Translations under genes and position numbers: made by a program | DNA from: Mangrovibacterium sp. | Lineage (GTDB): Bacteria; Bacteroidota; Bacteroidia; Bacteroidales; Prolixibacteraceae | Assembly (NCBI GenBank): GCA_047971925.1 | Contig: JBKEAC010000085.1 | Span: 10,794-74,793, forward strand | Direction: 5' to 3' | DNA: 64,000 bases | In this document: piece after piece, positions 11,940 to 61,433 of the stretch | Numbering within the stretch: position 1 is the first letter of the stretch | Layout of the letters: the number at the start of each line of letters is the position of its first letter | The notes under the pieces: model-generated | The model's input: only the letters and a program-made list of their open reading frames with translations | Databases searched by the model: none | What the model was told of the DNA's origin: nothing

Positions 11940-11984
11940 TTTTCGTAATTTATTGTTTCACAATGCAATATTATTCATCAAAAG

Positions 11985-12056
11985 TGACCCCAATGAGACT
12001 CGAACTCATATCGTCAGAACCGGAATCTGATATTCTATCCATTGAACTATGGAGCC
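11985..12056 (-). tRNA. tRNA-Arg (anticodon CCG)
   Basis: Hand-folded cloverleaf on the minus strand: acceptor GGCTCCA/TGGGGTC, D arm GTTC-AATGGATA-GAAT, anticodon arm TCAGA-TTCCGGT-TCTGA (CCG), T arm ATGAG-TTCGAGT-CTCAT, discriminator A. Length 72 nt, no encoded CCA. Confidence 0.85.
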
Positions 12057-12912: not shown

Positions 12913-12920
12913 TAGTTTTG
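12913..12920 (+). promoter_or_regulatory. Bacteroidota -7 promoter box (TAGTTTTG) upstream of RNA copy B
   Basis: Exact TAnnTTTG match ending a few nt before the conserved RNA block starts (CAGCCGGGUGAGG). A TTTG lies upstream, although the spacing is shorter than consensus. Confidence 0.4.
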
Positions 12921-13055
12921 CACAGCCGGGTGAGGTATTGGCGTGGAAATCCTTTTAAGTGGGCTTTGCCTTTTGCCCACTTAAAAGATTGGAACGGAAA
13001 GCCCGACGGCAGGGCTGGGCATTGTGGCGGGGAGGAATGCCGGCACCCCCAAAAG
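12921..13055 (+). ncRNA. Candidate structured RNA, copy B (unclassified family)
   Basis: GC-rich island with predicted closing helix GGGUG/CACCC, helix AAUCCUUUU/AAAAGAUU capped by an 8-bp hairpin AAGUGGGC-loop-GCCCACUU, hairpin GCCC-GACGGCA-GGGC and hairpin GGCAU..AUGCC. Homologous to copy A. Confidence 0.5.
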
Positions 13056-29203: not shown

Positions 29204-29211
29204 TAACTTTG
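29204..29211 (+). promoter_or_regulatory. Bacteroidota -7 promoter box (TAACTTTG) for the 29.2-33.9 kb operon
   Basis: Exact TAnnTTTG match about 30 bp after the end of repeat element copy 1 and 25 nt before the GTG at 29236. Confidence 0.4.
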
Positions 29212-29235
29212 CAAACTATAATAATTCTAATTCAA

Positions 29236-30837: not shown

Positions 30838-30840
30838 ACG

Positions 30841-32532: not shown

Positions 32533-32571
32533 GAAACTAATACTGCAAAATACTCTATTTTCGTTTAATAC

Positions 32572-33939
32572 ATGAAAAAACATCTCATCATATTCTTACT
32601 TTCAGTATGCTTTCATTCTGTTACTAACGCTCAGAGCAATGGAATACTTTTCCTAGAAGGAGTTCCTCAATCTACCATTCTCAATCCCTCTTGGAGACTA
32701 CATAATGATGATAATTGGCACATTTCTTTACCTGCTCTAGGAAGTATATCTACTGCTATTTCATTTCGCTCGCTATCATGGAATGAGGCTATGCGCATTG
32801 AAAACCGAATCCTCTATTTTGATTTAGAGAATCTTCCTGAAGCAGCCAAAGGAAACAATCCGATCTATGCATCAATGAATTTACAATTGTTTGGTGCCGG
32901 ATTTGAAATTAACAACAGACATTACTTCACGATCAACCTCAACACTCGAATCCAATCTAAAAGCAACATTCCTGGATCTATATTTAATTTACAATATGGC
33001 AACTGGGATACTCAAACAAACACCCCCATTAACCATCATATTCAGAAACTTTCGGTAGATGCCATCAGCTACATCGAAACAAGCCTTGGTTACAACCTAA
33101 AAGTAAATGACCAACTAACAATTGGCACACGCATTAAAGTACTCACGGGTGCTGCGGCTACAAAAACAGAAAACCTAGATATTCAAATGAAGACCTACAC
33201 CGATGGCACCATGCTTGTAGAACACGCCATTCAACAACAATTTGTTGGTCCATTCAACATCCGATTGTCTGATACAGGTAGAATCAATGGCATTCAGGTG
33301 GAAAACAACACTAGCGATATTATCGAATCAACACTCGGAAAAAACAAAGGATTTGCTTTCGATTTTGGTCTTAGCTACCAACTAAACGACAAACTCAATT
33401 TGGGTTTTTCAGTCATCGACATCGGACATATTAATTGGTCGGGGAAAACACAAGAAATTTATTCTCATAATGCACTTTACTATGAACCCACAGATATTAG
33501 CGACAATCTGACAAATGGTAGCAGTGGATCTAACAACAATGCTACAAGTCAAATCAAACAATATATTGACGATTTGAAAGATTCATTCAAGCTTAACAGT
33601 GTCGATAGCATCAGCTTTAGCACTCCCATTTATCGCACAATAAATTTCAATGCTCAATATCAAACTTATCAGTGGCTAAGCCTTGGTGGTCTATTGCAGT
33701 TTAACCATTTTTGGGAGCCAAACATCACACTAGCAAGCACATTTTCCTGTCGTAAAGCTTTTTCTGCAATGTTAAGTTGCAGTGCTTCCAAAGAAGACTA
33801 TTTGAACATAGGCACAGGACTAATGGTTCGAGGTGGTTTTTTTCAATTTTATGCTGTAACCGATCAATTAAATAGCATTTTAAGACTAGGAAATGCCGAC
33901 TCAATCAACTTTCAACTGGGATTTAATTTAATCTTTTAA
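32572..33939 (+). CDS. Putative outer-membrane beta-barrel protein
   Basis: 455 aa with a signal peptide (SVCFHSVTNAQ), alternating hydrophobic beta-strand patterns throughout, and a C-terminal aromatic residue (..QLGFNLIF) typical of OMPs. Confidence 0.6.
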   Translation: MKKHLIIFLLSVCFHSVTNAQSNGILFLEGVPQSTILNPSWRLHNDDNWHISLPALGSISTAISFRSLSWNEAMRIENRILYFDLENLPEAAKGNNPIYASMNLQLFGAGFEINNRHYFTINLNTRIQSKSNIPGSIFNLQYGNWDTQTNTPINHHIQKLSVDAISYIETSLGYNLKVNDQLTIGTRIKVLTGAAATKTENLDIQMKTYTDGTMLVEHAIQQQFVGPFNIRLSDTGRINGIQVENNTSDIIESTLGKNKGFAFDFGLSYQLNDKLNLGFSVIDIGHINWSGKTQEIYSHNALYYEPTDISDNLTNGSSGSNNNATSQIKQYIDDLKDSFKLNSVDSISFSTPIYRTINFNAQYQTYQWLSLGGLLQFNHFWEPNITLASTFSCRKAFSAMLSCSASKEDYLNIGTGLMVRGGFFQFYAVTDQLNSILRLGNADSINFQLGFNLIF

Positions 33940-33965: not shown

Positions 33966-36131
33966 CTAATTTTCAAAAGAATCTGCCACATCATTGCTAT
34001 AAACCTGAGTGAGCAATTCCAGTTTCAGACTTAATTCGGCTATTCTTAAAAGAATTTTTGCCTGCTGAACTACCACTGGCAGAACTTCGTTTGGTTGAAT
34101 CTTAATTAAATGTTCAATTATATCTTTTAATTCTGATTGATTTTTATAGGAATGGTCCATCGTTGGAATCCGAATGACATCTATCACATTCAAAATTTCT
34201 TCAGCTATATTTATCAAATTCGACTGATTTAAAACGCCTGATTCTCGATGCAAACCTAAAGCCGACAAATAGGAAATCAATGCATGATTATGATATGTTA
34301 ATTTCAAAGAAACATCTTGCAAAAGCGATTTCCCTTTCGGTTCCAAACGCATGTTTTTCCAAGCCATCGCCAAAGCATTATCTGCTCGATGGGACTCTCG
34401 CCTAGCTACTCTATAATCAAAGTCATTTTCTGGCAAACAATGCACATGGGCTCGAATAATCTGCTTAAGATATGCTGCATTCGATTGGAAAGCCACATTC
34501 AGAAGCGATGGGATACGCTTCCCATGAAAATCAGGCCACACAATCCTCACTGTAACCACCGCTATTGCAGAGCCAATCAATGTATCTAACAAGCGATATC
34601 CCAATGCATCGACCCCTTGCGGATTAACAAAATTAATGACACATAAAACATAAGTCGTTACGAAAATTACAGCATAACTATATCGCCTTCGTAGCCAATA
34701 CAAAAAAAGAAATGCTGATAACAACAGAAATGCAATTTGTCCCTCCATAGTGGGCAAAATATAAATAGAAATCATTCCGATTAACACCCCCAAGAGTGTT
34801 CCAAAAACACGTTGAAAGAAACGACGCCGAGTTTCACTATATGTAAATTGACAAACAAGTAGTGCAGTAAGCACCACCCATCCACCATAATCAATATTTA
34901 GTAATTGAGCAACAGTATAACTCAACGTTAAGCAAATGGATAAACGTATTGCATGGCGCATTCTTGGATGCTCAAAACTTAGTTGCTCAAACAAGCGCTC
35001 CTTAATCGAGCGATTATCTTTAGACAATCGTGGCATTATAACACTATCTTCACTCGTCATTAGTCCACTAATAATCTCACTAGTCCGACAAACATTCTGT
35101 ACAATATTTCGAAGTGAATGGTCGGCTTTTATTTGATAATAGTCTAATTTTTCTTCTAAAGAATTAACCGACCAAGTAACTAACGCTGGATGTTTATAAG
35201 GAATATGCACCAACAACGAATAAGCAAATAACTCCGAAGCCTCAGCCAATAAATAAAAAACCTGACCTACTCCTTCCAACACCTCTACCTCATTTTTTGA
35301 TTGCTGAATCATTTCATAGCGTTCATGAGTTGAAGTTGCCCTCTCGTGCAAACTTTGCAATTGCATGAAATAATTCATATATTGCCTTAAAACCTTATTA
35401 TCGCCCTCAATATCGGCATAACTCCTCATCAACACCCTGCACTGATCGAGAGAATCAACCAAGCGAATGTTCTTTATCGCTAAATTGTTTCGTATTGTTT
35501 GATGCAACGACATTTCTCTGATAAACAATTGAGCCTTCTCCTTCTGATAAGATGCCAACGCCTTAAATCCACGAGCCAATTGTTCTTCTAGCAAGCGATA
35601 AGGATTCAAATAAAGTAACATTAACGAAAATAAACCATGAATAAGGGCACCTAAAGAAAGTAACACAGCGGGCAAATACCACTCCCGATGAGAATCAATG
35701 CTCATCATAGCATAGACACCCACTAATATTGCACCAAATGTAATACCTCGAAAACGCTCACTAAGTCCACCTATCAAAATAAATACGATTGCAGAAATAC
35801 CTAAGCCTATTCCTAAAAGTATTGCATGATTAGCTAATAAAACAACAGCAAAACTTGATATTCCAAAGCCAAAAACCTTTAGCAATAAAGCAACAACTCT
35901 TCCTTTAGGATGATCATCGGTTTCCGATAATGCATCGGCCAAAACACCTAAAGCCAATGTACTTGCAAAAAAATTTCGCCCTGCCACAATAAAAGGCACA
36001 CACATGAGCGCTATAACAACAGTTACCTTTATGGCTTTTTGCCTATCAGGACTACTCCAAAACCATCTCCTCACGGGTTCATACCAACCAAACTTACTTA
36101 AGAAACTATGAAAACCATATTTATTCTCCAT
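33966..36131 (-). CDS. FUSC/YccS-family integral membrane protein
   Basis: 721 aa with two clusters of about 5-6 TM helices, separated and followed by long helical cytoplasmic regions. This is the architecture of the YccS/YhfK/FUSC family. Confidence 0.6.
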   Translation of the reverse strand: MENKYGFHSFLSKFGWYEPVRRWFWSSPDRQKAIKVTVVIALMCVPFIVAGRNFFASTLALGVLADALSETDDHPKGRVVALLLKVFGFGISSFAVVLLANHAILLGIGLGISAIVFILIGGLSERFRGITFGAILVGVYAMMSIDSHREWYLPAVLLSLGALIHGLFSLMLLYLNPYRLLEEQLARGFKALASYQKEKAQLFIREMSLHQTIRNNLAIKNIRLVDSLDQCRVLMRSYADIEGDNKVLRQYMNYFMQLQSLHERATSTHERYEMIQQSKNEVEVLEGVGQVFYLLAEASELFAYSLLVHIPYKHPALVTWSVNSLEEKLDYYQIKADHSLRNIVQNVCRTSEIISGLMTSEDSVIMPRLSKDNRSIKERLFEQLSFEHPRMRHAIRLSICLTLSYTVAQLLNIDYGGWVVLTALLVCQFTYSETRRRFFQRVFGTLLGVLIGMISIYILPTMEGQIAFLLLSAFLFLYWLRRRYSYAVIFVTTYVLCVINFVNPQGVDALGYRLLDTLIGSAIAVVTVRIVWPDFHGKRIPSLLNVAFQSNAAYLKQIIRAHVHCLPENDFDYRVARRESHRADNALAMAWKNMRLEPKGKSLLQDVSLKLTYHNHALISYLSALGLHRESGVLNQSNLINIAEEILNVIDVIRIPTMDHSYKNQSELKDIIEHLIKIQPNEVLPVVVQQAKILLRIAELSLKLELLTQVYSNDVADSFEN

Positions 36132-36278
36132 TCTAGCAATACTATTAGATTCAAAATCAATTCCTTTCTAAAAGAAAAAGCATGAATAATCATATTCATA
36201 CTTTCCTTTTTAAAGAACATGCAAATTAACTACTTCTTAGAAAATACTGAGTAGTCTAAACCTTAAGTTTATATAAGA

Positions 36279-37028
36279 TTAATGCGTATTATTCCAAAAC
36301 AATTGAGCTTTTTCTAAATCCTCAGGTGTATCTATGCCAATACTTTCATGCTCCGTTTCTGCCACTTTAATTTTATAACCCGCCTCAAGCCAACGCAATT
36401 GCTCTAAGGATTCCGACAATTCAAGCGACGATGGCTCTAAGGTTGTCAATTTCTGAAGCACATCTGCTCGATAAGCATACATCCCTAAATGATAATAAAA
36501 CGAACGATTTTCTAACCACTTTTCAGGATCTGTTCCACGCACATAAGGAATTGTTGATCGGCTAAACAACATGGCGAAGTTTTGCGTATTAAAAACAAGC
36601 TTCGGACGATTCGGGTTAAACAATGTTTCAACATCTTCCACGCGCTTTGCCAATGTAGCTATCTGCGTTGAACTATCAGAAAAACATTGAGTCAAAGATT
36701 CTAGTTGCTGTGCACACACAAAAGGCTCATCGCCTTGCACATTCACCACCACGTCAAAATCATTTTCTTTAGCCAACAAGCGTGCTGCTTCTGCCACTCT
36801 ATCAGTACCACTAGGGTGATCTGCTCGTGTTATTACAACTCGTCCACCAAAATTTTTTACTACTTGTGCTATTCTATCATCATCGGTTGCCACCCAAACA
36901 CGTTCAAATGTTTCAGCAGCTTTTTCATAAACATGCTGAATAATGTATTTTTCAGCTAACTTTTCGAGAGGCTTACCTGGAAATCTAGACGATTGATATC
37001 GAGCTGGAATAATGGCAATAATATTCAT
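36279..37028 (-). CDS. kdsB: 3-deoxy-manno-octulosonate cytidylyltransferase (CMP-KDO synthetase)
   Basis: 249 aa with MNIIAIIPARYQSSRFPGKPL, SGTDR and NVQGDEP motifs. Confidence 0.92.
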   Translation of the reverse strand: MNIIAIIPARYQSSRFPGKPLEKLAEKYIIQHVYEKAAETFERVWVATDDDRIAQVVKNFGGRVVITRADHPSGTDRVAEAARLLAKENDFDVVVNVQGDEPFVCAQQLESLTQCFSDSSTQIATLAKRVEDVETLFNPNRPKLVFNTQNFAMLFSRSTIPYVRGTDPEKWLENRSFYYHLGMYAYRADVLQKLTTLEPSSLELSESLEQLRWLEAGYKIKVAETEHESIGIDTPEDLEKAQLFWNNTH

Positions 37029-37086
37029 GTAGATAATTTTATTTGATTAAAAAAGATTTTATATTCATTTTTTGTGCACTTTTTAT

Positions 37087-37115
37087 TTTGATTATGCAAA
37101 GTTCTTGTATTTTTG
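37087..37115 (+). promoter_or_regulatory. Candidate Bacteroidota promoter (TTTG-N17-TATTTTTG) upstream of the receiver gene
   Basis: TTTG at 37087-37090 and TAnnTTTG at 37108-37115, in the 218-bp divergent intergenic region. Confidence 0.35.
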
Positions 37116-37246
37116 CACAAATATAATAATATCATCTTCTAAAATAGAAAGATTGATAAACGGTACTTAAACTTTTCCAACATTGGTGGGTTTATTTAAC
37201 GAGAGTTGCAAAAAAATAATTTATCATCACCTTAATTTAAAAACAT

Positions 37247-37615
37247 ATGTCTAAAAAAATTCTTGTAGCAGAAGACAACAAACTTATCCTAGAAACAATC
37301 TGTCATAAACTAATTAAAGATGGCTACGAAGTAATTAAAACCGTAAATGGTAAAGAATGCAGCGAATATCTAAGCTCTCACAAAGATGAAATAGATATGC
37401 TCATCACCGACTTATATATGCCTTTTTTAAATGGTCACGAAATCATTAACCTAGTAAGAGTGGAACTTGATTTAAAAATTCCAATCCTAGTTTTATCGGC
37501 CGACGGGGCGGAAGACTCGGTGTTGAAAGCTTTTGAACTAGGAGCCGACGACTATGTAATTAAACCTTTTAGTCTGAGCGAACTCACCATTCGACTAAAA
37601 AAGATGCTGCGTTAA
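37247..37615 (+). CDS. Stand-alone response regulator receiver (CheY-like) protein
   Basis: 122 aa with acidic pocket VAEDN, phospho-acceptor Asp in LITDLYMP and a conserved Lys in VIKPF. There is no output domain. Confidence 0.88.
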   Translation: MSKKILVAEDNKLILETICHKLIKDGYEVIKTVNGKECSEYLSSHKDEIDMLITDLYMPFLNGHEIINLVRVELDLKIPILVLSADGAEDSVLKAFELGADDYVIKPFSLSELTIRLKKMLR

Positions 37616-39866
37616 ACCCGCGACCTTCTTAAAACACCTTTTTATTCATTTTTAATTTTGTCCATGAATCAAGTTTACAACCTAAGTAAAAAGCTTCTTC
37701 TATATTATGCATTGTCATTTATCTTTTCTTTCACCATTCTGCACAACGCATTGGCGCAAACAAAAGTAAATGCCGATTCGTTGTTTTTAGTTGCTCGACA
37801 GTATTCTTTTGATGGCAAATACAATAAAGCTTTGCAAATTTCCGACTTAATTTTAAGTCAGAATCCCAACTATTTTGATGTTTCGTTGCTAAAAAGTCGC
37901 ATTTATTCATGGCAAGGAGATTACACAACTGCTGAAAAAATAGCCTCTGAGGTTTTAACTCTTGACCCGAAGAATTATGATGCTTATGATGCGCTATCGA
38001 ATATCTATCTATGGAACAATCAATCGGAAGAATGCATCTTAACAATCAACAGAGCTTTATATTTCTTTGAAGATGATATCAACCTCTTAATAAAAAAAAC
38101 AAAAGCCTTACTCCTTCTTCAAAACTTTGAAGAGGCGCAAGAAACTCTTGATATTTTATCAGAATTAGACCCACAAAATCCTGAAATTAAAAAACTCAAA
38201 GATAGAATTACAGTAGAAGCAACAAGCAATACTTCTACTGTCAATTTAGATTCTCTCTTCGCTGTTGCCAATAACTATGCTGCGAAAAAAGAGTACACTA
38301 AAGCTCGAAATACTGCTTCTGAGGTATTGGCAATCTATCCTCAATATACCGATGCGCAGCTTCTAATTGCTAGAACTCAAGCTTGGGAAGGAAATTATGT
38401 GTCTGCACAAAAAGAAGTGAGCGATGTACTAAGTAAAGATGCTAAAAACTACGATGCGATCTCATTACAAAGCGATATATATTTCTGGAATGGAAAGTAT
38501 AATCAATGTATTCTGTTCATCACTCAGGCTCAATCCATCTATCCGAAAGATATTTCTTTACTAACTAAAAAATTTAAAGCACAAGTTGCACTCAACGATA
38601 ATGAGAGTGCTAATGAAACTTTAAAATTGCTAGAAGTTCTAGATCCAGAAAACAAAAGTGTGAAGGCTGAAAAAAACACAAAGTAAGCCCTATCAAGTAA
38701 ACTCGGATCCGATAGCTAAGTAATTTGACTTTTTTGTCTAAGCAAACTCAGCATCGACTAAAAAGATGCTGTGCTAAACTCGCTGCCCTCTCAAAACACC
38801 TTTTTATTCATTTTTTTATTTTGTCCATGAATCAAGTTTACAATTTAAGTAAAAAGCTTCTTCTATTTTATGCATTGTCATTTATCTTTTCTTTCGCTAT
38901 TCCACACAACGCATTGGCGCAAACAAAAGTCAATGCCGATTCGTTGTTTTTAGTTGCTCGACAGTATTCTTTTGATGGCAAATACAATAAAGCTTTGCAA
39001 ATTTCCGACTTGATTTTAAGTCAGAATCCCAATTATTTTGATGTTTCGTTGCTAAAAAGTCGCATTTATTCATGGCAAGGAGATTACACAACTGCTGAAA
39101 AAATAGCTTCTGATGTTTTAACTCTTGACCCAAAGAATTATGATGCTTATGATGCGCTATCGAATATCTATCTATGGAACAATCAATCGGAAGAATGCAT
39201 CTTAACAATCAACAGAGCTTTATATTTCTTTGAAGATGATATCAATCTTTTAATAAAAAAAACAAAAGCCTTACTCCCCTTAAAAAACTACGATGAGGCG
39301 CAAGAAACAATTAATCGGTTATTAGAATTAGACCCACAAAATCCAGCTATTAAAAAACTCCAAGATAGAATTAACTTAGAAGCATCTGGCAATGCAACTA
39401 CTATCAATTTAGATTCTCTCTTCAGCGTTGCTAATAGCTATGCTATGAAAAAAGAGTATACTAAAGCTCGAAATACAGCCTCAGAGGTATTAGCAATCTA
39501 TCCTAAATATACCGATGCACAGCTGCTAATTGCTAGAACTCAAGCTTGGGAAGGAGATTATGCATCTGCACAAAAAGAAGTGAGCGATGTGCTAAGTAAA
39601 GATGCTAAAAACTATGACGCAATCTCATTACAGAGCGATATTTACTTCTGGAATGGAGAATATGACCAGTGCATTCTGTTCATCACTCAGGCTCAATCCA
39701 TCTATCCGAAAGATATTTCTTTACTAACTAAAAAATTTAAAGCACAAGTTGCACTCAACGATAATGAGAGTGCCAATGAAACTTTAAAAATGTTAGAGGT
39801 TCTAGATCCTGAAAACAGTGTATTGAAGGATGAAAAAGAAAAGATAGCACTAAGCAAGCCCTATAA
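37591..39866 (+). repeat. Tandem duplication, period about 1163 bp (copy 1 37591-38693, copy 2 38754-39866)
   Basis: The last about 25 bp of the receiver gene, the intergenic region, the signal peptide and the whole TPR region are repeated. Both ends of the unit are nearly identical between copies, while the middle third is visibly more diverged. Confidence 0.9.
37664..38686 (+). CDS. Secreted tetratricopeptide-repeat protein (barrel-less paralogue of the downstream gene)
   Basis: ATG at 37664 (the ORF track TTG is at 37658), with a signal peptide ending ALAQ and multiple TPR units. The stop codon falls at a position that is internal in the paralogue. Confidence 0.75.
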   Translation: MNQVYNLSKKLLLYYALSFIFSFTILHNALAQTKVNADSLFLVARQYSFDGKYNKALQISDLILSQNPNYFDVSLLKSRIYSWQGDYTTAEKIASEVLTLDPKNYDAYDALSNIYLWNNQSEECILTINRALYFFEDDINLLIKKTKALLLLQNFEEAQETLDILSELDPQNPEIKKLKDRITVEATSNTSTVNLDSLFAVANNYAAKKEYTKARNTASEVLAIYPQYTDAQLLIARTQAWEGNYVSAQKEVSDVLSKDAKNYDAISLQSDIYFWNGKYNQCILFITQAQSIYPKDISLLTKKFKAQVALNDNESANETLKLLEVLDPENKSVKAEKNTK

Positions 39867-40620
39867 AAATATTATCAAAGTTGAATATAACTACGAAACC
39901 TTCAAGAAACCATGGGAAAGAATGTGGAGCATGACTGGTTTGTCATATGGCAGACGCACATCGAAATATGGCGACTATTATGCCAATATTTTCATGGGTG
40001 ATTTGATTTTACCTGGTGAAAAATTTGGTTCCGATTTAGGCCTACAATTCGAGCTCGAATGCTACCCAAAGATTGACAACAATAACACTTTTTTCTTTGC
40101 CTACGCCTATTCGCCTAGCCCAATTTTTGCTACCCATCGATTAGGTGTTGAATATTATCGAAGTTTTCCAAACATTATTGATGCTTCATTAGGATATCGC
40201 TTCATGAATTTCTCGACAGATGTTGAAGAAATAGTTAATGTTAATGTACTTACCACATCAATTTCAAAATATCTTGGTAATTATTGGCTCTCTTTTCGCC
40301 CCTATGCCGTTTTTGTGAGTAATGTCGATAAGGTTAATTCTTCATATCAAATCATAGGTCGAAAATATCTTGCACGCCCTGAAAGTTTTATCGGATTAAC
40401 ATTAGGGTATGGTGTAAGTTCTCCCGATGACAGCTTTTTTCAGAACAATGCAGGAACAGCGCCTCTTTATAAAACCTACACTACACAAGCACAATTCAAA
40501 TACAAACTTTCCTCTTTACTAATCATTGATTCTTATTTAGGCTATGAAAATGCAGAATATAAACCCAATTCACATCGTGGGCAAATAAATTTTAGAATTG
40601 CAATTCAATGCTTACTTTAA
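38827..40620 (+). CDS. TPR + C-terminal outer-membrane beta-barrel protein (YaiO-like; PgaA/BcsC-type export porin architecture)
   Basis: ATG at 38827. The ORF-track extension from 38725 is the duplicated 3' end of the receiver gene. The N-terminal about 330 aa are TPR. The C-terminal about 260 aa show amphipathic beta-strands (LGVEYYRSF, SLGYRFMNF, YWLSFRPYAVFV, IGLTLGYGV, QAQFKYKL, IDSYLGYENAEY, INFRIAI). Confidence 0.7.
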   Translation: MNQVYNLSKKLLLFYALSFIFSFAIPHNALAQTKVNADSLFLVARQYSFDGKYNKALQISDLILSQNPNYFDVSLLKSRIYSWQGDYTTAEKIASDVLTLDPKNYDAYDALSNIYLWNNQSEECILTINRALYFFEDDINLLIKKTKALLPLKNYDEAQETINRLLELDPQNPAIKKLQDRINLEASGNATTINLDSLFSVANSYAMKKEYTKARNTASEVLAIYPKYTDAQLLIARTQAWEGDYASAQKEVSDVLSKDAKNYDAISLQSDIYFWNGEYDQCILFITQAQSIYPKDISLLTKKFKAQVALNDNESANETLKMLEVLDPENSVLKDEKEKIALSKPYKNIIKVEYNYETFKKPWERMWSMTGLSYGRRTSKYGDYYANIFMGDLILPGEKFGSDLGLQFELECYPKIDNNNTFFFAYAYSPSPIFATHRLGVEYYRSFPNIIDASLGYRFMNFSTDVEEIVNVNVLTTSISKYLGNYWLSFRPYAVFVSNVDKVNSSYQIIGRKYLARPESFIGLTLGYGVSSPDDSFFQNNAGTAPLYKTYTTQAQFKYKLSSLLIIDSYLGYENAEYKPNSHRGQINFRIAIQCLL

Positions 40621-40628
40621 AGCTTCTA

Positions 40629-42029
40629 ATGAAACGAAAACATTTAATAAGCGCTCTAGTATTAATCTCAATCTGGGCTCTTATATTAGCATCTACCGCC
40701 TATGGATTCTGGAATGCCATTCAACACTATTCTCCAGAATCATTAGCAGAAGATCAAGCTATCGCCGATGCTGAATGGGAAGCTCGTCAAAAAGTTATTG
40801 ATGCAAAAAGTGCTAACTTCCCGATTGGTCATCAAGTTAAAGCGCTTCGTCCATCTACACATCCATTAGCTATAAAAATGCGTCATTCCATTCGATATTT
40901 TCTGCATGGAATGATCGATTTTTCTTTGCCTGAAATATGGTCAACTAAAGTCAAATCGAACATTGAAAATATCATCGGGATTCCCCTAATCACCATGATG
41001 TTTCTAATGACATTAATATTCAATACTCTCATTCCTATTATCGGAACAATATTATTTTTAGCCACATTCCGAAAAGAATATAAAATTCAATATAGAGAAC
41101 AACTATTATCTAGATACGAAGAAGTGATGATGGAATATCTTTTCGGAGAATTGCCAGCGAAAGAAGTAGCTCTCGAGATGCGTAAAGTAACAAGTAAATT
41201 AGGCAAGGATATTTTAATAGAAAGTCTAATGAACTATGAACGCAATCTTTCTGGAGAATATGCCGATCGGATTATATTACTTTATCGACTTGTTGGCTTA
41301 CATCATTTTTCAATGCGAAAAATCAAATCACGACAAACAACGCGGAGAGTGAGCGGCATTCGCGAGTTGTCAAATCTATATCCTTCGGGAGCACTTAAGG
41401 TAATCATTAAATATTTGAATGATAAAAATCATTTAGTACGAAGTGAGGCTCTAATTTCATATGCTTTCCTAGATACTTCTGCATCATATAGCTTTCTAGA
41501 CAATTTGAATAGCGAGTTTTCAACATGGACTCAGCTAAACATTCTTAACTATGTGAAATTACACGAACAAGCTGTTCCTTCATTTCAAAAATGGCTTCAA
41601 TCCTCGAATAACGACGTACAAGATTTTTGTATCAAGATGATTCAATATTTCCAACAAATTGAAAGTGCTCAAGAATTAACTGCCATGATATATCATCCCA
41701 ACAGATACACTCGTGAAAATATCTATCAAGCAATTCGCGCCCTCAATTACGTCGATGCAAAAACGGTATTAATCGGACGTTACTTTGATGAAGTGGCAAG
41801 AAATAAAATTGAAATACTAAAAACTATACGCGAAATTGGCTCTATTGATGATATCGATTTTTTCCTTCTTGCATTAAGTGATGAAAATAGCGTGGAAATC
41901 ATCTTGCTTATATGTAGCATCATTATCGACTTAGCCCCTTCTGGAGAATATCAACTACGAAATTTTGCTGAAGAACGCGATAAAAACTTATTCAAATACA
42001 TCAATTACATAACGAAGAACAAAGCTTAA
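40629..42029 (+). CDS. Membrane-anchored HEAT/ARM-like repeat protein
   Basis: The ORF track starts at 40608, overlapping the upstream stop, and the ATG at 40629 (MKRKHLISALVLISIWALIL) is also possible. The protein has one N-terminal TM helix, a hydrophobic hairpin (IPLITMMFLMTLIFNTLIPIIGTILFLA) and then HEAT-like units (LNDKNHLVRSEALISYAF, HPNRYTRENIYQAIRAL). Confidence 0.6.
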   Translation: MKRKHLISALVLISIWALILASTAYGFWNAIQHYSPESLAEDQAIADAEWEARQKVIDAKSANFPIGHQVKALRPSTHPLAIKMRHSIRYFLHGMIDFSLPEIWSTKVKSNIENIIGIPLITMMFLMTLIFNTLIPIIGTILFLATFRKEYKIQYREQLLSRYEEVMMEYLFGELPAKEVALEMRKVTSKLGKDILIESLMNYERNLSGEYADRIILLYRLVGLHHFSMRKIKSRQTTRRVSGIRELSNLYPSGALKVIIKYLNDKNHLVRSEALISYAFLDTSASYSFLDNLNSEFSTWTQLNILNYVKLHEQAVPSFQKWLQSSNNDVQDFCIKMIQYFQQIESAQELTAMIYHPNRYTRENIYQAIRALNYVDAKTVLIGRYFDEVARNKIEILKTIREIGSIDDIDFFLLALSDENSVEIILLICSIIIDLAPSGEYQLRNFAEERDKNLFKYINYITKNKA

Positions 42030-42031
42030 TC

Positions 42032-44116
42032 ATGAGTGGCATTTGGATTAAAATATGGAGTGAACTTGCTTTCTGGATCGAAAACTATTTGTTTTGGTAT
42101 GCCTTTGTCATGTTCCTATTATACTCCATTCTAGCTATAATATCGGCAATTGTTTTAACACGCTATAGTAAGGAGGCCAATGTAACCAATTACAACGAAG
42201 TACTTTCGTCACCTTACGCACCAATGGTTTCAATTTTAGCACCTGCATACAATGAAGAACTAAACATCTATGAAAATGTTAAAGCTCTTCTTTCTCTCTA
42301 TTACGCAAACTATGAAGTGGTTGTCATCAACGATGGAAGTTCCGATGCAACACTCGACGTAGTAATCAATGAGTTCGACATGGAAAAAGTCGATATCTTA
42401 ATTGATAATAAAATCCATAGTTCTGAAATTCGTGGGGTGTATCGCTCAAGAAAAACATCGCTAAATAACCTTGTCCTAGTTGATAAAATAAATGGGGGGA
42501 AAGCCGACGCTCTAAATGCAGGAATCAATGTTTCTTCGGGTAAATACTTTGTTGCTATCGATGCCGATTGTGTAATTGACCCTTATGCCCTCCAGATATT
42601 AGTTAAACCCTTTCTAGCCGACCAGCAAGGAAAAGAAACCATTGCAGTGGGTGGTGTGATTCGAATAGCCAATTCGTGTGTTATTGAAGGAGGACAACTC
42701 ATCGATATTCAACTCCCGAAACAATTACTTCCCTTATTTCAAGTCATAGAATATAATCGATCCTTTCTCATGGGGCGACTGGCATGGACTAAACTTAATG
42801 GATTACTCATTATTTCAGGAGCTCTGGGAATGTTCAATAAAGAAATTGTAGTGGAATGTGGCGGATACTCCAGATATACAGTAGGTGAAGACATGGAACT
42901 TGTGGTTCGCATGCGTCGATACATGTCGGAAATAGTAAAAAAACCTTATAAAATCGATTATCTTCCTGACCCTTTATGCTGGACAGAAGCTCCTGCAACA
43001 GCCGACATTCTAATTAGGCAACGTAATCGCTGGACTAGAGGAACTATCGAAACTCTCTTTGCTCATTGGAACATGTTTTTAAATCCAAAATATGGCGTGA
43101 TGGGCATGATGTCGCACCCATTCTGGACTTTCTTCGAATGGTTCGCTCCAATCATTGAGTTTGTAGGCATGCTCTATTTTTTGATTCTTGTGTTCTCTGG
43201 GCAAGCCAATTGGACAATCTTCTTCACTTCATTAACATTTATATATGCATTTGCACTCACGCTTAGTGGAATTAGTATATTATATGACCACATTGTCTAT
43301 TTTAAATATCAAAAAATCGACATGGTAATTCGTCAGCTCCTTGCAGCTGCCATTGAACCTTTCGTATATCACCCGATAGTAACTTATGCTGCTCTTCGTG
43401 GAAATTGGGACTATTTTATTCTTCGTAAACGAAATTGGGGGAAAATGCCTCGTGCGGGACTTGGGGGGAAACCTCAAAGTGTGGTTAGCGCAGAAACAAT
43501 CAGGAATAAACAAAACGAAAATGAAACAAATACTCCTGTTGAAGTTCCAAGTGCTCATCAAGAAGCTGCCGAAAAAAAAACATCAAATAACCAGAAAATC
43601 ATTCGCACTATCATTTACATTTCTTTTGCTTTAATTATCGGATATTTCGCTTTCAATCATTTTGCTCAAATAGCTAAGCAAAATGTTAAACAAATAGAAT
43701 CAGTTGACCAAACTCTCGAACGCCTTGCATCGGAAGACTCTGTGCAAAATATCAAAATTAAAAATGCAGCAAATAACATTACTTTGCAGTCTATTTCCAT
43801 ACAAAACAACGTGGAATACAGAGATGGTTATCAAACCTTGATTATTGTAAACTCCATTGAATTAAACCTTAACTTTCAACTCATCGTTGGTAGTTTCAAT
43901 GAGCATGAGAATGCTTTAAACTACATTAAAGCCCTACAAACAAAAAACATTAATGCAGCAATTCTTGCTAAAAGCAACAACATCTACTTCATTTCTGCTG
44001 GTGGATACAATACGCTCAATGAAGCACTCGCTGCTAAACAAAAAATCAATGATAGCAATCCTGAAATAGAAGGCATTTGGATTTATCATCGCAGAAAGAA
44101 TGATTCATTAAACTAA
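42032..44116 (+). CDS. Family-2 processive glycosyltransferase (PgaC/BcsA/NodC-like synthase) with C-terminal SPOR domain
   Basis: 694 aa with motifs VSILAPAYNEE, VINDGSSDAT, AIDADC, GEDMEL and RQRNRWTRG (QxxRW). TM helices flank the catalytic domain. A low-complexity linker follows, then one more TM helix, then a SPOR-like fold (FQLIVGSFNEHENALNYIKAL..AILAKSNNIYFISAGGYNTLNEALAAKQKI). Confidence 0.8.
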   Translation: MSGIWIKIWSELAFWIENYLFWYAFVMFLLYSILAIISAIVLTRYSKEANVTNYNEVLSSPYAPMVSILAPAYNEELNIYENVKALLSLYYANYEVVVINDGSSDATLDVVINEFDMEKVDILIDNKIHSSEIRGVYRSRKTSLNNLVLVDKINGGKADALNAGINVSSGKYFVAIDADCVIDPYALQILVKPFLADQQGKETIAVGGVIRIANSCVIEGGQLIDIQLPKQLLPLFQVIEYNRSFLMGRLAWTKLNGLLIISGALGMFNKEIVVECGGYSRYTVGEDMELVVRMRRYMSEIVKKPYKIDYLPDPLCWTEAPATADILIRQRNRWTRGTIETLFAHWNMFLNPKYGVMGMMSHPFWTFFEWFAPIIEFVGMLYFLILVFSGQANWTIFFTSLTFIYAFALTLSGISILYDHIVYFKYQKIDMVIRQLLAAAIEPFVYHPIVTYAALRGNWDYFILRKRNWGKMPRAGLGGKPQSVVSAETIRNKQNENETNTPVEVPSAHQEAAEKKTSNNQKIIRTIIYISFALIIGYFAFNHFAQIAKQNVKQIESVDQTLERLASEDSVQNIKIKNAANNITLQSISIQNNVEYRDGYQTLIIVNSIELNLNFQLIVGSFNEHENALNYIKALQTKNINAAILAKSNNIYFISAGGYNTLNEALAAKQKINDSNPEIEGIWIYHRRKNDSLN

Positions 44117-44152
44117 ATTGTTTAACTTTGTTTTCCCGAAAATACGAAAGAA

Positions 44153-45439
44153 ATGGATTTACAAGTTATTAAACAACGATTTGGAATTATCGGAAATAAC
44201 CATACACTCAACAGAACTATCGAGGTAGCTCTTCAGGTGGCTCCCACCGATTTGTCGGTTCTTATTACAGGCGAAAGTGGTTCTGGAAAGGAATCTATTC
44301 CTCAAATCATTCATCAAAATTCATCACGCAAACACAATAAATACATTGCTGTGAACTGTGGGGCAATTCCAGAAGGCACTATTGACTCAGAATTATTTGG
44401 ACATGAAAAAGGTTCTTTCACTGGTGCTTTAAACGATCGCAAGGGATATTTTGAAGAAGCAGATGGTGGTACTATTTTTCTTGATGAAATAGGAGAACTT
44501 CCATTATCAACACAAGCTCGACTCTTAAGAGTGCTTGAAGCTGGTGAATATATCAGAGTTGGCTCATCGAAAGTTCAAAAAACAGATATCAGAATTGTTG
44601 CTGCCACAAATATCAACTTCACGAATGCTATTCAAGATGGAAAATTTAGAGAAGATTTATTCTACCGATTAAACACGGTTCCAATTCGGCTTTCTCCATT
44701 GCGAGAAAGAACCGATGATATTTTTCTTCTATTTAGAAAGTTTGCTTCCGATTTCGCAGAAAAATATCAAATGCCATCGATACGTTTAACTCCTGAAGCT
44801 CGATATCTTTTAGAAAACTATCACTGGCCTGGAAATATTCGCCAACTCAAAAATGTTACAGAGCAAATATCAATCATAGAGCAAGAAAAAACAATAACCG
44901 ATGAAATTGTTAGAAGATATCTGCCTGAAGGAGGAAAACCAAACCTCCCCACGCTATACAAAAATGAAGATTCAAAAAATTTTTCTACCGAAAGAGAAAT
45001 ACTGTATCAAGTACTTTTCGATATGAAAAAAGATATGACCGATTTGAAAAAGCTCGTTTTCGATCTAATGAAAGACAGTAACAGCTCTCCAAATGTGTCT
45101 AATGAAAACCAACAGATTATTCATGATTTATATCACAATGACTCCTATGCGAGTGTTGTTAGTCATACTCCTGCTGGCAATAATTCACCTTCTGCATCCT
45201 TCAATAACTCGCCAAGTATAGAACTCGATGATGATATTGAATATTATCATGAAGAACATGCATCGAATGAAATCGATATAATGCGCCTTGCTGAATATGA
45301 GAAAATCGCAATCCAAAAAGCACTAGAAATGTTTAATGGCAACCGACGAAAAGCGGCAGAAAAACTTGGAATTTCAGCCAGAACTCTATACCGTAAGCTA
45401 AAAGAGTATGACCTCCTCGATGGAAGCGTGGACGAATAA
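44153..45439 (+). CDS. Sigma-54-dependent transcriptional activator (AAA+ plus Fis-type HTH, no N-terminal sensory domain)
   Basis: 428 aa with Walker A GESGSGKE, the GAFTGA variant GSFTGA, ESELFGHEKG, Walker B FLDEIGE, the R-finger region and a C-terminal HTH (RKAAEKLGISARTLYRKLKEY). Confidence 0.88.
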   Translation: MDLQVIKQRFGIIGNNHTLNRTIEVALQVAPTDLSVLITGESGSGKESIPQIIHQNSSRKHNKYIAVNCGAIPEGTIDSELFGHEKGSFTGALNDRKGYFEEADGGTIFLDEIGELPLSTQARLLRVLEAGEYIRVGSSKVQKTDIRIVAATNINFTNAIQDGKFREDLFYRLNTVPIRLSPLRERTDDIFLLFRKFASDFAEKYQMPSIRLTPEARYLLENYHWPGNIRQLKNVTEQISIIEQEKTITDEIVRRYLPEGGKPNLPTLYKNEDSKNFSTEREILYQVLFDMKKDMTDLKKLVFDLMKDSNSSPNVSNENQQIIHDLYHNDSYASVVSHTPAGNNSPSASFNNSPSIELDDDIEYYHEEHASNEIDIMRLAEYEKIAIQKALEMFNGNRRKAAEKLGISARTLYRKLKEYDLLDGSVDE

Positions 45440-45527
45440 TGTAATCACTCTGCTTTTATTCCGATTATCTAATAGGACTACTTTAAATAGCGTAATTGAA
45501 TTCTAAATTTAAAACACACCAAAACAA

Positions 45528-46052
45528 ATGAAAGTATATCTACATAAACTGGCTCTCTTAGCCATCATGGCTCAACTAATATTTTTGCCTTTTTCCGCAT
45601 GCAAAATGTCGTACTCTTTCACTGGTGCGGCTCTTGATCCTTCGGTTAAAACATTTGCTGTACTATATATTCAGAATAGAGCTCGATTGGTTAACCCTAA
45701 TCTTAGTCAACAATTAACCGATGGACTCATTGATAAAATTAATCGCCAAACATCTCTTCAAATGATGCAAAATGAGGGAGATCTTGAATTTGAAGGTGTT
45801 ATTTCTGATTATAGAGTAACTCCTGTGAATATTTCTCAAGGTGACCTAGCAGCTCAAAATCGACTTACAGTAACACTGCAAATGAAATACACCAACAACA
45901 AAGACCACGATGCTGATTGGGAAAAATCATTCTCTGCCTATGTTGACTTTGATGCTAACAGATTATTATCTGATGTTGAAGAGTCGCTTGCTGAGGAAAT
46001 TATAGCTCAATTAACCGATGATATTTTTAATGCATCAATAGCCAATTGGTAA
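45528..46052 (+). CDS. lptE: LPS-assembly lipoprotein LptE-family protein
   Basis: 174 aa with a lipoprotein signal ..FSAC followed by the Bacteroidota LptE-type motif YSFTGA. It sits in the conserved position between the sigma54 activator and secG. Confidence 0.7.
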
Positions 46053-46615
46053 TGAACAGTTCCATTCTAAATAAATATATAGAAAATCCAGAGCTTCTCA
46101 ATGAGGATAGTCTTATTGAACTCAAAAAAATAGTTCTCGATTTTCCACACTTCCAATTAGCATGGGTTCTATTAATCAAAAACTTAGTGCTACTTGAATC
46201 AGAAGAACTTGATAGCTATTTAGAGAAAGCTTCTTTCTTCATCGTAGATAAACGACGATTATATCACCTGCTATACATCGACCCAAAACTAGCTATGAGA
46301 GAATTGAACTTGAGTAAAAATGAACTAGCCAATTCGAGCAGTACGAAAATAAGCGACAAAAACTCTCCGCTCGAAGAATTAAGTAATCTTGCATTCTCGC
46401 TTCAGCAAAACACACCCTATCAAAATACAAGCGTAAAAAACACGAATAGCTCAGGTGAAAATGACTTTTTCACAGAAACTATGGCCAAAATATACATTAA
46501 ACAAGGATTATTTAAACAAGCAATTACATCTTATGAGAAATTATGTTTGAAATTTCCAGAAAAAAATGCTTACTTTGCCGAACGAATTGAAGAAATTAAG
46601 AAATTAACGAAATAA
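46046..46615 (+). CDS. Hypothetical protein with C-terminal TPR-like helix pair
   Basis: 189 aa, overlapping the lptE stop by 7 nt. The C-terminal sequence [31 protein letters not shown] is TPR-like. Confidence 0.55.
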
Positions 46616-46621
46616 ATTAAA

Positions 46622-47008
46622 ATGTACACATTAATTACAGTCTTATTAATTATCGCCAGTGTATTCATGGTGTTAATCGTTTTAGTGCAAAACTCAAAAG
46701 GTGGAGGCTTGGCAAGCAACTTTCAATCAAGCAATCAAGTCATGGGAGTTCGCAAGACTAATGATTTCCTTGACAAGACAACTTGGTGGTTGGCTGGAAT
46801 CCTTTTAGTCCTTTCTATTGCAGGTAGTGCTTATATACCTAAAGAAAACAAAGTCCCTGTTGCTACTGAAATGAGTAGCCAAATTAACAACGCAGCAAAA
46901 CAAGCTACTATTCAAACTGAGCCTGTATTTGAAGAAGCTACTGGAGAAGTAAATGCTACTGAAACTAATACTTCTGAAGAAACTGAAGCAAGCGAACCTA
47001 CTCAATAA
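46622..47008 (+). CDS. secG: Preprotein translocase subunit SecG
   Basis: 128 aa with two TM helices, the SecG motif LVQNSKGGGL and an acidic/Thr-rich tail. Confidence 0.85.
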   Translation: MYTLITVLLIIASVFMVLIVLVQNSKGGGLASNFQSSNQVMGVRKTNDFLDKTTWWLAGILLVLSIAGSAYIPKENKVPVATEMSSQINNAAKQATIQTEPVFEEATGEVNATETNTSEETEASEPTQ

Positions 47009-61027: not shown

Positions 61028-61100
61028 GACTCAGTAGCTCAGCCGGTAGAGCACATCCCTTTTAAGGATGGGGTCCTGGGTTCGAATCCCAGCTGAGTCA
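61028..61100 (+). tRNA. tRNA-Lys (anticodon UUU), copy 1
   Basis: Acceptor GACTCAG/CTGAGTC, D loop AGCTCAGCCGGTAGAGC, anticodon arm CATCC-CTTTTAA-GGATG, T arm CTGGGTTCGAATCCCAG. Length 73 nt. Confidence 0.92.
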
Positions 61101-61163
61101 CTATTTTTAGTGTATTTAGCATTAGAAATATAGTCTTTATTTAGAAGACAAATAAACCGTGGA

Positions 61164-61236
61164 GACTCAGTAGCTCAGCCGGTAGAGCACATCCCTTTTA
61201 AGGATGGGGTCCTGGGTTCGAATCCCAGCTGAGTCA
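61164..61236 (+). tRNA. tRNA-Lys (anticodon UUU), copy 2
   Basis: Sequence identical to copy 1. Confidence 0.92.
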
Positions 61237-61305
61237 CACAAAATGCGAGTTCAAAATTCGTATCTTATCGACATACTTTCATTAAAGGAAGTATAATTCC
61301 ACGGA

Positions 61306-61378
61306 GACTCAGTAGCTCAGCCGGTAGAGCACATCCCTTTTAAGGATGGGGTCCTGGGTTCGAATCCCAGCTGAGTCA
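61306..61378 (+). tRNA. tRNA-Lys (anticodon UUU), copy 3
   Basis: Sequence identical to copy 1. Confidence 0.92.
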
Positions 61379-61433
61379 CCAAGAAAACTTTTTACAATTA
61401 TTTTGTGAAAAGTTTTTTTTTCATTCATACATT

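Follow-up and report, generated by a model that had tools for sequence, protein, structure and literature searches.

A candidate phosphorelay-linked glycan synthase module with a HEAT-repeat partner in Mangrovibacterium

Introduction

To our knowledge, every well-studied synthase-dependent polysaccharide machine (cellulose, poly-N-acetylglucosamine, alginate, Pel and Nfr) is switched post-translationally by cyclic di-GMP (c-di-GMP). The Bacteroidota largely lack this signal and nevertheless form biofilms and matrix polymers. Here we analyse a 64,000-nucleotide stretch of DNA (the window; contig JBKEAC010000085.1, positions 10,794 to 74,793) from a metagenome-assembled genome of Mangrovibacterium sp. 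(Prolixibacteraceae, Bacteroidota). It holds a gene module built around a family 2 glycosyltransferase (GT2), together with a stand-alone receiver domain (REC), a protein in which tetratricopeptide repeats (TPR) are joined to a predicted outer-membrane barrel of the YaiO family, and a membrane protein with HEAT repeats. The fixed REC and HEAT partners point to a control logic other than c-di-GMP that is directly testable, and the module offers a handle on a polymer made by many environmental, gut, plant-associated and possibly pathogenic microbes.

Among described systems, Nfr of Escherichia coli combines the TPR outer-membrane protein NfrA with NfrB, a GT2 carrying a c-di-GMP-binding MshEN domain (PMC8669469). 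The gene table of NELoc-2, a locus of Clostridium perfringens associated with necrotic enteritis, lists a HEAT protein (CP4_0467, 377 amino acids (aa)) next to a GT2 annotated as 'chitin synthase' (CP4_0468, 466 aa) (PMC2879425). This gene table is the only published HEAT-GT2 pair found in the literature searched, and it raises a possible pathogen link. In type 11 secretion proteins (Slam/DUF560), a barrel of 14 strands is fused to a short TPR domain in the periplasm (PMC8406197). A description of the module itself was not found in the literature searched in full text, a coverage outside which most subscription journals lie.

Results

Gene content and domain assignments

On the sequence evidence, the locus probably encodes a four-component, synthase-dependent system for glycan synthesis and export, of an undescribed type, that is switched by a phosphorelay and accompanied by a recent gene duplicate. 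As stated in the original prediction, which was made from the DNA letters without database searches, five co-directional open reading frames (ORFs) are present. They lie between kdsB and a sigma-54 activator that lacks a receiver:

37247-37615, plus strand: REC, a stand-alone receiver of 122 aa (Pfam Response_reg)
37658/37664-38686, plus strand: TPR-only protein of 340-342 aa, with a signal peptide ending in ALA-Q (TPR_19)
38827-40620, plus strand: TPR-YaiO barrel protein of 597 aa, with a signal peptide (PF19413, TIGR04390)
40629-42029 (alternative start 40608), plus strand: HEAT membrane protein of 466 aa (HEAT_2)
42032-44116, plus strand: GT2-SPOR protein (Glyco_tranf_2_3, Glycos_transf_2, SPOR)
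36279-37028, minus strand: kdsB, the upstream flank of the module
44153-45439, co-directional with the module: REC-less sigma-54 activator, the downstream flank

Profile searches against Pfam and NCBIfam upheld the predicted REC, TPR, YaiO, HEAT, GT2 and SPOR domains, with matches of 7e-22 for REC (Response_reg) and 5e-10 for HEAT_2. REC and the TPR-only gene are separated by 42-48 bp, and the TPR-only and TPR-barrel genes by 140 bp. The distance from the TPR-barrel gene to the HEAT gene is +8 bp with the start at 40629, which gives the 466-aa form and is the choice of the public gene calls; the start at 40608 gives a 13-nt overlap. The HEAT stop precedes the GT2 start by 2 bp here, and the two genes overlap in relatives. 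The idea of a five-gene unit held for four genes only: the conserved unit consists of REC, TPR-YaiO, HEAT and GT2, and the TPR-only gene is a lineage-specific duplicate that is missing from sister genomes.

The glycosyltransferase and the outer-membrane barrel

The GT2 carries the first hallmark of synthase-dependent secretion, as judged from its motifs and hydropathy: it appears to be an inner-membrane enzyme with D, DxD, (T/G)ED and QxxRW motifs and with transmembrane (TM) segments flanking the GT-A domain. Its parts are as follows:

42032..43480, plus strand (aa 1-483): GT2 synthase core, with an N-terminal TM region, a cytoplasmic GT-A domain and C-terminal TM helices
43595..43666, plus strand (aa 522-545): extra TM helix seen in the hydropathy profile, which would carry the tail into the periplasm
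43880..44050, plus strand (aa 617-673): SPOR domain (PF05036), predicted to be periplasmic

The protein matched three GT2 families, including Glyco_tranf_2_3 (5e-21) and Glycos_transf_2 (2e-20). The motifs NDGS-D, NGGKADALN, IDxD, TVGEDMEL and QRNRW were invariant in nine relatives with 45-63% identity to the window GT2. The closest curated family was PgaC/IcaA (TIGR03937), with 128.7 bits at an equivalog cut-off of 422.3, and the scores against CelA and NodC were negligible. Searches of PDB sequences with the GT2 alone and with a GT2 profile returned generic matches to the N-terminal GT-A part and weak matches to BcsA, and no close solved homologue; among solved structures, BcsA alone aligned to the C-terminal half (positions 270-414).

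The second hallmark, a TPR-coupled outer-membrane barrel, is indicated by the predicted structure of the TPR-YaiO protein, which divides into two parts:

38935-39855, plus strand (aa 37-343): two tandem TPR modules, behind a signal peptide
39868-40614, plus strand (aa 348-596): YaiO-family beta-barrel with 14 predicted strands

The barrel belongs to the YaiO family, scoring above both curated cut-offs (PF19413: 2e-35, 122.7 bits, cut-off 23.9; TIGR04390: 1e-24, 87.4 bits, cut-off 32). The AlphaFold2 model of the whole protein (mean pLDDT 83) shows 19 helices followed by 14 beta-strands, and its top full-length fold match in the PDB was E. coli BcsC (9b8a; 548 aligned columns, TM-score 0.40). 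The C-terminal barrel, proposed earlier from an amphipathic strand pattern, is thus supported by both profiles and model. Membership in the synthase-dependent exopolysaccharide (EPS) class, likewise proposed earlier, holds as far as the GT2 motifs and the TPR barrel go, while the making of a polymer and processivity are suggested by the motifs.

We consider it very improbable that TPR-YaiO is instead a Slam-like type 11 exporter of a protein or lipoprotein, with a GT2 whose product is a glycosylated lipid or a short oligosaccharide. Such a reading would account for the 14 strands behind a short N-terminal TPR part, which is the layout of DUF560 proteins (PMC8406197), and for a GT2 that reaches the cut-off of none of the curated models for polymer synthases. 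It is opposed by the barrel itself, which gave no Pfam match to DUF560 (PF04575) when scanned alone, even at E<=10, and by the module, in which no lipoprotein or cargo gene is conserved. Elsewhere, moreover, the TPR part lengthens to a PgaA/BcsC-like size (barrel proteins of 954-1006 aa), and the GT2 has a C-terminal TM bundle and aligns to the channel-proximal region of BcsA. We thus favour glycan synthesis and export as the function of the locus.

Conservation of the module across phyla

The synteny sample was obtained with a GT2-alignment scan (one genome per species, two peptide patterns) and comprised the best 80 of at least 495 relatives; loci were annotated with purpose-built hidden Markov models (HMMs) iterated on those same loci. 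Of 73 species loci, which came from more than 10 phyla, 68 had a HEAT-TM gene immediately upstream of the GT2 gene, as did all 41 Bacteroidota loci with room for it. A HEAT gene is present in the remaining five of the 73 as well: it overlaps an over-extended GT2 ORF in three and lies at 1.6 or 5.8 kb in two. Apparent long 'GT2' ORFs in high-GC loci were discarded as artefacts of ORF over-extension. Pfam detected HEAT_2 in 8 of 9 upstream ORFs for which the first HMM scan had given no match or a weak one (from Firmicutes, Actinobacteriota, Balneolia, Proteobacteria, Verrucomicrobiota and Nitrospira), and one short Bacillus upstream ORF had no Pfam family.

REC and the barrel were counted in the Bacteroidota loci whose flanks reach 4.5 kb or more in both directions (n = 28). 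REC was present in 24, TPR-YaiO in 25 and the full set of four genes in 21. The YaiO barrel was found in none of 11 monoderm loci (Firmicutes, Actinobacteriota), as expected of an outer-membrane component. The gene order in Mesorhizobium ciceri WSM1271 pMESCI01 is kinase, response regulator, second response regulator, YaiO barrel, HEAT and GT2, with an Hpt gene downstream (PGAP annotation); the module there is MESCI_RS32000-32015. The same annotation gives an overlapping triad in a haloarchaeon:

L092 4581-7446, strand not stated: response regulator, HEAT and GT2 on a Salinirubellus plasmid

Further haloarchaeal plasmid matches were found in Halosolutus and Haloarcula. With the Salinirubellus triad, the core is present in Archaea as well as in Bacteria, for which plasmid transfer is a possible route. 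REC-HEAT-GT2 loci were recorded in Bacteroidota, Proteobacteria, Verrucomicrobiota, Nitrospirota, Firmicutes, Actinobacteriota and haloarchaea. Defined as a HEAT-TM gene upstream of GT2 with REC in the operon and, in diderms, TPR-YaiO, the module is complete in the window.

These findings indicate that the HEAT-partnered, receiver-linked synthase module is widespread, that it is unnamed, and that its components are annotated only generically. The original prediction had seen REC and HEAT as occupying the place of the usual accessories, and both are indeed conserved with this GT2 clade across phyla. Its expectation that the neighbouring genes would co-occur was borne out for REC, the TPR-barrel, HEAT and GT2, and failed for the TPR-only gene and for the GT2-SPOR fusion.

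The HEAT partner and the SPOR domain

The AlphaFold2 model of the HEAT protein is all-helical (mean pLDDT 86). Together with hydropathy it suggests the following arrangement, in which the TM segments and the roughly 300 aa of HEAT repeats foreseen from the sequence are both recovered:

aa 4-33, plus strand: first TM helix (TM1; AlphaFold2 and hydropathy)
about 90 aa between TM1 and TM2, plus strand: predicted periplasmic loop
aa 119 to about 148, plus strand: TM2, predicted as a long helix that runs on into the cytoplasm
41157-42014, plus strand (aa 177-462): alpha-solenoid, predicted to be cytoplasmic

A profile of the family, run against 1.84 billion cluster representatives (50% identity), matched 9651 of them at E<1e-3 and 985 at E<1e-30. 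The conserved core of the family is an anchoring TM helix plus the solenoid. Among 49 long representatives, 21 carry a further domain, SPOR on 18 and LysM on 3, which in the members inspected individually sits in an N-terminal extension ahead of the anchoring TM helix. This position would make the extension periplasmic and the solenoid cytoplasmic, in agreement with hydropathy and the positive-inside rule. HEAT-GT2 fusions were not found among these 49 proteins; their extra length consists of more HEAT repeats or of the N-terminal SPOR or LysM.

In the window, SPOR is found on the GT2 instead. The domain was detected with 3.6e-6 and 27.6 bits (cut-off 21), and with 30.3 bits when the C-terminus was scanned alone. 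In the hydropathy profile the tail runs from the C-terminal TM helices through a basic segment (RKRNWGKMPR) and a low-complexity linker to the TM helix at aa 522-545 and then SPOR. With this helix ahead of it, the PF05036 domain should be periplasmic. SPOR was also detected on the GT2 of one of two sister genomes (L087), and the fusion is confined to the closest relatives. The GT2-SPOR synthase of the original prediction is accordingly a genuine protein (27.6-30.3 bits), yet it represents a lineage-specific fusion and not a part of the conserved module. That the peptidoglycan-binding domain shifts from one protein to the other (HEAT or GT2) lends indirect support to the idea that the two act in one complex.

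The receiver and its signalling context

The window REC has a complete phospho-acceptor set (E9, D10, D55, S84, Y103 and K106). It thereby shows the residue pattern expected of a phosphorylatable PF00072 receiver, with an acidic pair, Asp, Ser/Thr, an aromatic residue and Lys. The pattern [E/D]D, D, S/T, F/Y, K is kept in 56 of 57 module-linked stand-alone RECs. A histidine kinase was not found in the window, as had been noted before: a phmmer search with ten hybrid kinases from related loci matched the REC gene alone. In several related Bacteroidota loci, among them L005, L023 and L024, unorthodox kinases of the layout PAS-HisKA-HATPase-REC-Hpt abut REC directly upstream, which would make REC the natural end point of a His-Asp-His-Asp relay. 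The locus of Sphingobacterium anhuiense is one with such a neighbouring kinase. Firmicutes and Actinobacteriota have a REC-REC or Hpt-REC-GGDEF-REC protein in the equivalent position. Given the conserved acceptor residues, the kinases near REC and these REC-bearing fusions, phosphorylation appears to be the common denominator across the module family, and c-di-GMP looks like an add-on in some lineages that is missing from the Bacteroidota form.

None of the post-translational c-di-GMP receptors of known systems (PilZ, PgaD, PelD, Alg44, MshEN) was recognised in the locus. Pfam and NCBIfam searches of the five proteins returned no PilZ, PgaD, GGDEF, EAL or MshEN domain, in line with the earlier claim that no PilZ, PgaD or GGDEF-type receptor is present, although the proteins may have a cryptic binding site. 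It is nonetheless conceivable, if quite unlikely, that c-di-GMP is still the allosteric activator, with the HEAT protein or the HEAT-GT2 interface as a receptor that has escaped recognition and REC controlling only a diguanylate cyclase, to which it would be joined in some phyla but not in others. Pga, for instance, binds c-di-GMP at a subunit interface without a recognisable domain. Bacillus-type, Paenibacillus and actinobacterial loci do carry Hpt-REC-GGDEF-REC upstream, and the GGEEF motif and RxxD I-site are intact in L056 and L061. These two are the only such cases among the 7 fused GGDEF proteins examined, however, and most of the fused domains lack GG[DE]EF. The Bacteroidota, proteobacterial, verrucomicrobial and archaeal versions have the bare receiver only, and the checked neighbours of the module, like the module itself, were free of GGDEF, EAL, PilZ and MshEN. 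Bacteroidota are also generally poor in c-di-GMP enzymes, which is a statement on the phylum and not on this genome. The earlier proposal of control by phosphorylation rather than by c-di-GMP therefore fares differently in its two halves: the genomic context backs phosphorylation (56 of 57 RECs, adjacent kinases), and the exclusion of c-di-GMP fails for the family as a whole (REC-GGDEF fusions). For the window locus we retain phosphorylation of REC as the probable switch.

Downstream of the module, a sigma-54 enhancer-binding protein without an N-terminal receiver or sensor starts 36 bp after the GT2 stop. It opens a conserved block (44153-47008) of sigma-54 activator, LptE, a hypothetical gene and SecG that is kept in relatives. 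Since this activator (44153-45439) lacks the usual N-terminal receiver and is co-directional with the module, REC might be thought to serve it and to be unrelated to the synthase, a reading that we find barely conceivable and have rejected on synteny. The sigma-54-LptE-x-SecG block is separate, and in M. lignilyticum and Gaoshiqia a type 9 secretion system cadherin gene on the opposite strand intervenes. In Sphingobacterium, Algoriphagus, Mesorhizobium and the haloarchaeon the cluster is not near the module, and REC stays with HEAT-GT2.

Duplication of the TPR part and lineage-specific changes

Both TPR proteins match TPR_19 (1e-26 to 8e-28, the latter for the TPR-only protein), and the signal peptide and repeats of the TPR-only protein agree with its earlier description as a secreted all-TPR protein. 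The second had been described as a paralogue of the first. The relationship is not an old one: pairwise alignment revealed a tandem partial duplication of about 1.1 kb.

37607..38700, plus strand: duplication copy A
about 38769-39870, plus strand: duplication copy B, aligned with copy A

The copies share 93% nucleotide identity, which includes about 50 bp 5' of each start codon, and the TPR-only protein is 90% identical to the TPR part of the barrel protein. The differences are concentrated in the linker that joins the two TPR modules. With a synonymous divergence (dS) of 0.26 and a ratio of non-synonymous to synonymous divergence (dN/dS) of 0.21, the TPR-only copy seems to be under constraint, and it is no fresh artefact. 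Public short-read contigs begin at window position 39744, within copy B. An assembly artefact was considered and judged unlikely, given that the copies differ by 7%, that dN/dS is 0.21 and that independent contigs break inside the repeat.

The sister Mangrovibacterium genomes L087 and L088 carry the four-gene unit, with one TPR-YaiO gene (595-600 aa) and a GT2 that is long (655-704 aa) beside REC and HEAT; the TPR-only gene was found in neither. In the more distant M. lignilyticum and Gaoshiqia, TPR-YaiO is 425 aa long with a single TPR module, and the GT2 (480-491 aa) is without SPOR. Within the barrel protein, the TPR region is in turn built from a module of about 150 aa that has been duplicated internally (window 38935-39855, and also 37664-38686). 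The lengths of 595-600 aa in the subclade and 425 aa in M. lignilyticum and Gaoshiqia, together with the tandem copy, suggest that TPR dosage grew repeatedly. As sister and distant relatives differ in the TPR-only gene, in SPOR and in TPR length, we infer a history in which the TPR module doubled within the gene, SPOR then joined the GT2 tail, and the TPR part was finally tandem-duplicated in the window lineage only.

Accessory genes in related loci and the fate of the glycan

A deacetylase, lyase or hydrolase domain was not found in the module by Pfam and NCBIfam searches, nor was a sulfatase-type ORF found in the window, so that the present locus is without a recognised periplasmic modifying or degrading enzyme. 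The earlier claim that such an enzyme is lacking is therefore true here, but does not extend to the family: 18 related loci encode a membrane enzyme of the alkaline phosphatase superfamily, annotated as 'Sulfatase' and resembling LtaS, EptA, OpgB and BcsG. In Sphingobacteriia it is fused to the C-terminus of the GT2, and in Flavobacteriia and Cytophagia a sulfatase-type protein of about 800 aa with C-terminal TPR is encoded between GT2 and YaiO. Examples, with 15 further loci, are:

L005 11062-14484, strand not stated: sulfatase-type enzyme
L027 9439-11829, strand not stated: sulfatase-type enzyme
L006 15463-17478, strand not stated: sulfatase-type enzyme

The presence of these enzymes suggests that, where they occur, phospholipid head groups supply a decoration of the polymer. 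It also bears on the destination of the product, which might be a cell-envelope glycan that is kept in the periplasm or attached to the wall (like the osmoregulated periplasmic glucans, or wall-linked), made by a peptidoglycan-tethered synthase and decorated by LtaS/OpgB/EptA-type enzymes in many relatives. We regard this as unlikely for the module, even though SPOR and LysM recur on the complex, the LtaS-type enzyme is fused or adjacent to GT2 in the 18 loci, and the core triad occurs in organisms without an outer membrane (Firmicutes, Actinobacteriota and the haloarchaeon). The distribution of the TPR barrel, in 25 of 28 Bacteroidota loci versus 0 of 11 monoderm loci, fits passage across the outer membrane, and in the fold search the barrel protein matched the cellulose exporter BcsC best over its full length. 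Decoration of the phosphoethanolamine type is, as BcsG shows, compatible with a secreted polymer. A secreted glycan thus remains our preferred product.

Other related loci differ in the genes that surround the core. Bacillus-type loci (L056 5324-15934 and L061 5337-15862) encode Hpt-REC-GGDEF-REC, HEAT, GT2, a protein of 1077-1086 aa, REC and a REC-containing protein of 958-969 aa. In L056, the version scanned, the first of these large proteins had no Pfam family and the second (969 aa) is a HAMP-GAF-PAS hybrid kinase. From their gene content, the two loci appear to be self-contained islands of signalling and synthesis. L034 (7992-10957) and L035 (6518-9560) have two tandem GT2 paralogues after one HEAT gene and a barrel protein of about 1000 aa. 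L035 is labelled Beijerinckiaceae, yet it is organised exactly like the Chitinophaga locus L034, and may therefore be mis-binned.

Other features of the window

The 218-bp divergent intergenic region between kdsB and REC holds a candidate promoter element, which was read from the sequence and is given as a lead only:

37108..37115, plus strand: candidate Bacteroidota -7 box TATTTTTG, which fits TAnnTTTG, presumably the Bacteroidota -7 consensus

A scan for sigma-70 promoters and terminators performed no better than on shuffled sequence, and Rfam gave no match at E<=1 in 36000-45600, c-di-GMP riboswitches included.

Outside the module, two Flavo-1 RNA motifs (RF01705, 56 and 48 bits) lie in opposed orientation at 12252-12334 (minus strand) and 12920-13012 (plus strand), adjoined by a tRNA-Arg(CCG) gene at 11984-12056. 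At 61028-61381 there are three tRNA-Lys(UUU) genes in tandem, all with the same Rfam score. The DNA polymerase III alpha subunit (1517 aa) encoded at 5031-9584 on the minus strand has an RNase_T-type exonuclease domain N-terminal to its PHP domain. A co-directional trio at 29209-33939 encodes a type I phosphodiesterase/nucleotide pyrophosphatase (542 aa), a 563-aa protein and a DUF5723 protein (455 aa) with a weak FadL-like match. The 563-aa protein had no Pfam family, and neither had a 641-aa ORF at 53634-55559.

Discussion

From the domain identities, predicted folds, motif conservation and cross-phyla gene linkage observed here, we infer the following working mechanism. The GT2 would use its cytoplasmic GT-A domain to polymerise a sugar nucleotide and, as its motifs and architecture suggest, thread the chain processively through its own TM channel. 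The HEAT protein would be an obligate partner in contact with the GT2, anchored by a TM helix and with its solenoid placed in the cytoplasm beside the catalytic domain. REC would act as the last acceptor of a His-Asp-His-Asp phosphorelay whose kinase is encoded elsewhere in the genome. Phosphorylated REC may dock on the HEAT scaffold or on the GT2 and switch polymerisation on or off post-translationally, thereby taking the role of the c-di-GMP receptors (PilZ, PgaD) in Bcs and Pga. On the periplasmic side the chain would be received by the TPR modules and exit via the 14-stranded YaiO barrel. SPOR on the GT2 tail could act as a peptidoglycan tether for the inner-membrane complex, perhaps at sites of division, and the TPR-only duplicate, apparently under purifying selection, may add periplasmic scaffold.

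Several points weigh against this mechanism. The QxxRW motif set is also found in makers of short oligomers such as NodC. Fold searches with the HEAT model returned only generic designed or eukaryotic ARM/HEAT/alphaRep solenoids and no functional lead, and a solved or characterised homologue of the HEAT partner was not found. REC-HEAT or REC-GT2 fusions were absent from the 49 long HEAT proteins scanned, so that the target of REC is deduced from gene linkage, and a nearby REC is missing in 4 of the 28 Bacteroidota loci. The fusion of REC to GGDEF in Firmicutes and Actinobacteriota means that c-di-GMP could be the proximal signal there, and the present module, too, could have an unrecognised c-di-GMP binding site. 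Finally, the barrel, with 14 predicted strands versus 16-18 in PgaA, BcsC and AlgE, should be narrower than these known EPS porins, and in strand count and TPR fusion the protein matches the type 11 secretion proteins.

A wider proposal is more tentative. REC-HEAT-GT2 might constitute an ancient, pan-prokaryotic class of glycan synthases, in which phosphorylated REC would gate a processive synthase directly through a HEAT adaptor, with SPOR or LysM as the tether to peptidoglycan.

Comparison with known systems

The type 11 secretion (Slam) proteins share the TPR part and the 14-strand layout with the window barrel protein. They export proteins or lipoproteins, whereas the window protein lacks a DUF560 match and stands in the context of a GT2 synthase.

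The cryptic yaiO-yaiX-yaiP-yaiS cluster of E. coli K-12 contains the founding YaiO barrel gene beside the gene for the GT2 YaiP. Over 227 aa, YaiP and the window GT2 share 27% identity (E 4e-10). E. coli YaiO, however, has no TPR and is barely similar (E 0.06), and the cluster includes an acyltransferase pseudogene and a deacetylase, with neither HEAT nor receiver.

NELoc-2 of C. perfringens has the HEAT-then-GT2 pair in sizes like those of the monoderm members, a likeness of annotation and size. It differs in having no outer-membrane component, the organism being monoderm.

Nfr resembles the module as a minimal, recently recognised synthase-dependent system composed of a GT2, a TPR outer-membrane protein and a dedicated local signal input. 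There, control is exerted by c-di-GMP through MshEN on the GT2, and HEAT and receiver are missing; conversely, Pfam found neither MshEN nor NfrA_C in the module proteins.

Bcs shares the D, DxD, (T/G)ED and QxxRW motifs. BcsA is the sole solved structure that aligns with the C-terminal half of the GT2, BcsC is the top fold match of the barrel protein, and the alkaline-phosphatase-superfamily enzyme of relatives recalls the E. coli phosphoethanolamine transferase BcsG. Curated models nevertheless separate the two systems (CelA, TIGR03030: 37.9 bits versus 699; BcsC: 30 bits versus 858). The module has no PilZ and no BcsB, its porin is far shorter, and it has HEAT and REC where Bcs has PilZ and c-di-GMP.

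Pga shares a few-TM inner-membrane GT2 that is paired with a second membrane protein, and a TPR-fused barrel, and PgaC/IcaA gives the best curated score. That score is far from the cut-off (128.7 bits versus 422.3 for TIGR03937), as is that of PgaA (TIGR03939), which reaches 62.2 bits versus 366.65 and covers the TPR part only. The barrel is of the YaiO type with 14 predicted strands versus 16, and the module is without a PgaB-type deacetylase, PgaD and c-di-GMP input. Where Pga has the small two-TM protein PgaD, the module has a predicted cytoplasmic HEAT solenoid of about 350 aa, encoded upstream of the synthase gene. If our proposal is true, gating through REC and HEAT would be the phosphorelay counterpart of gating by c-di-GMP.

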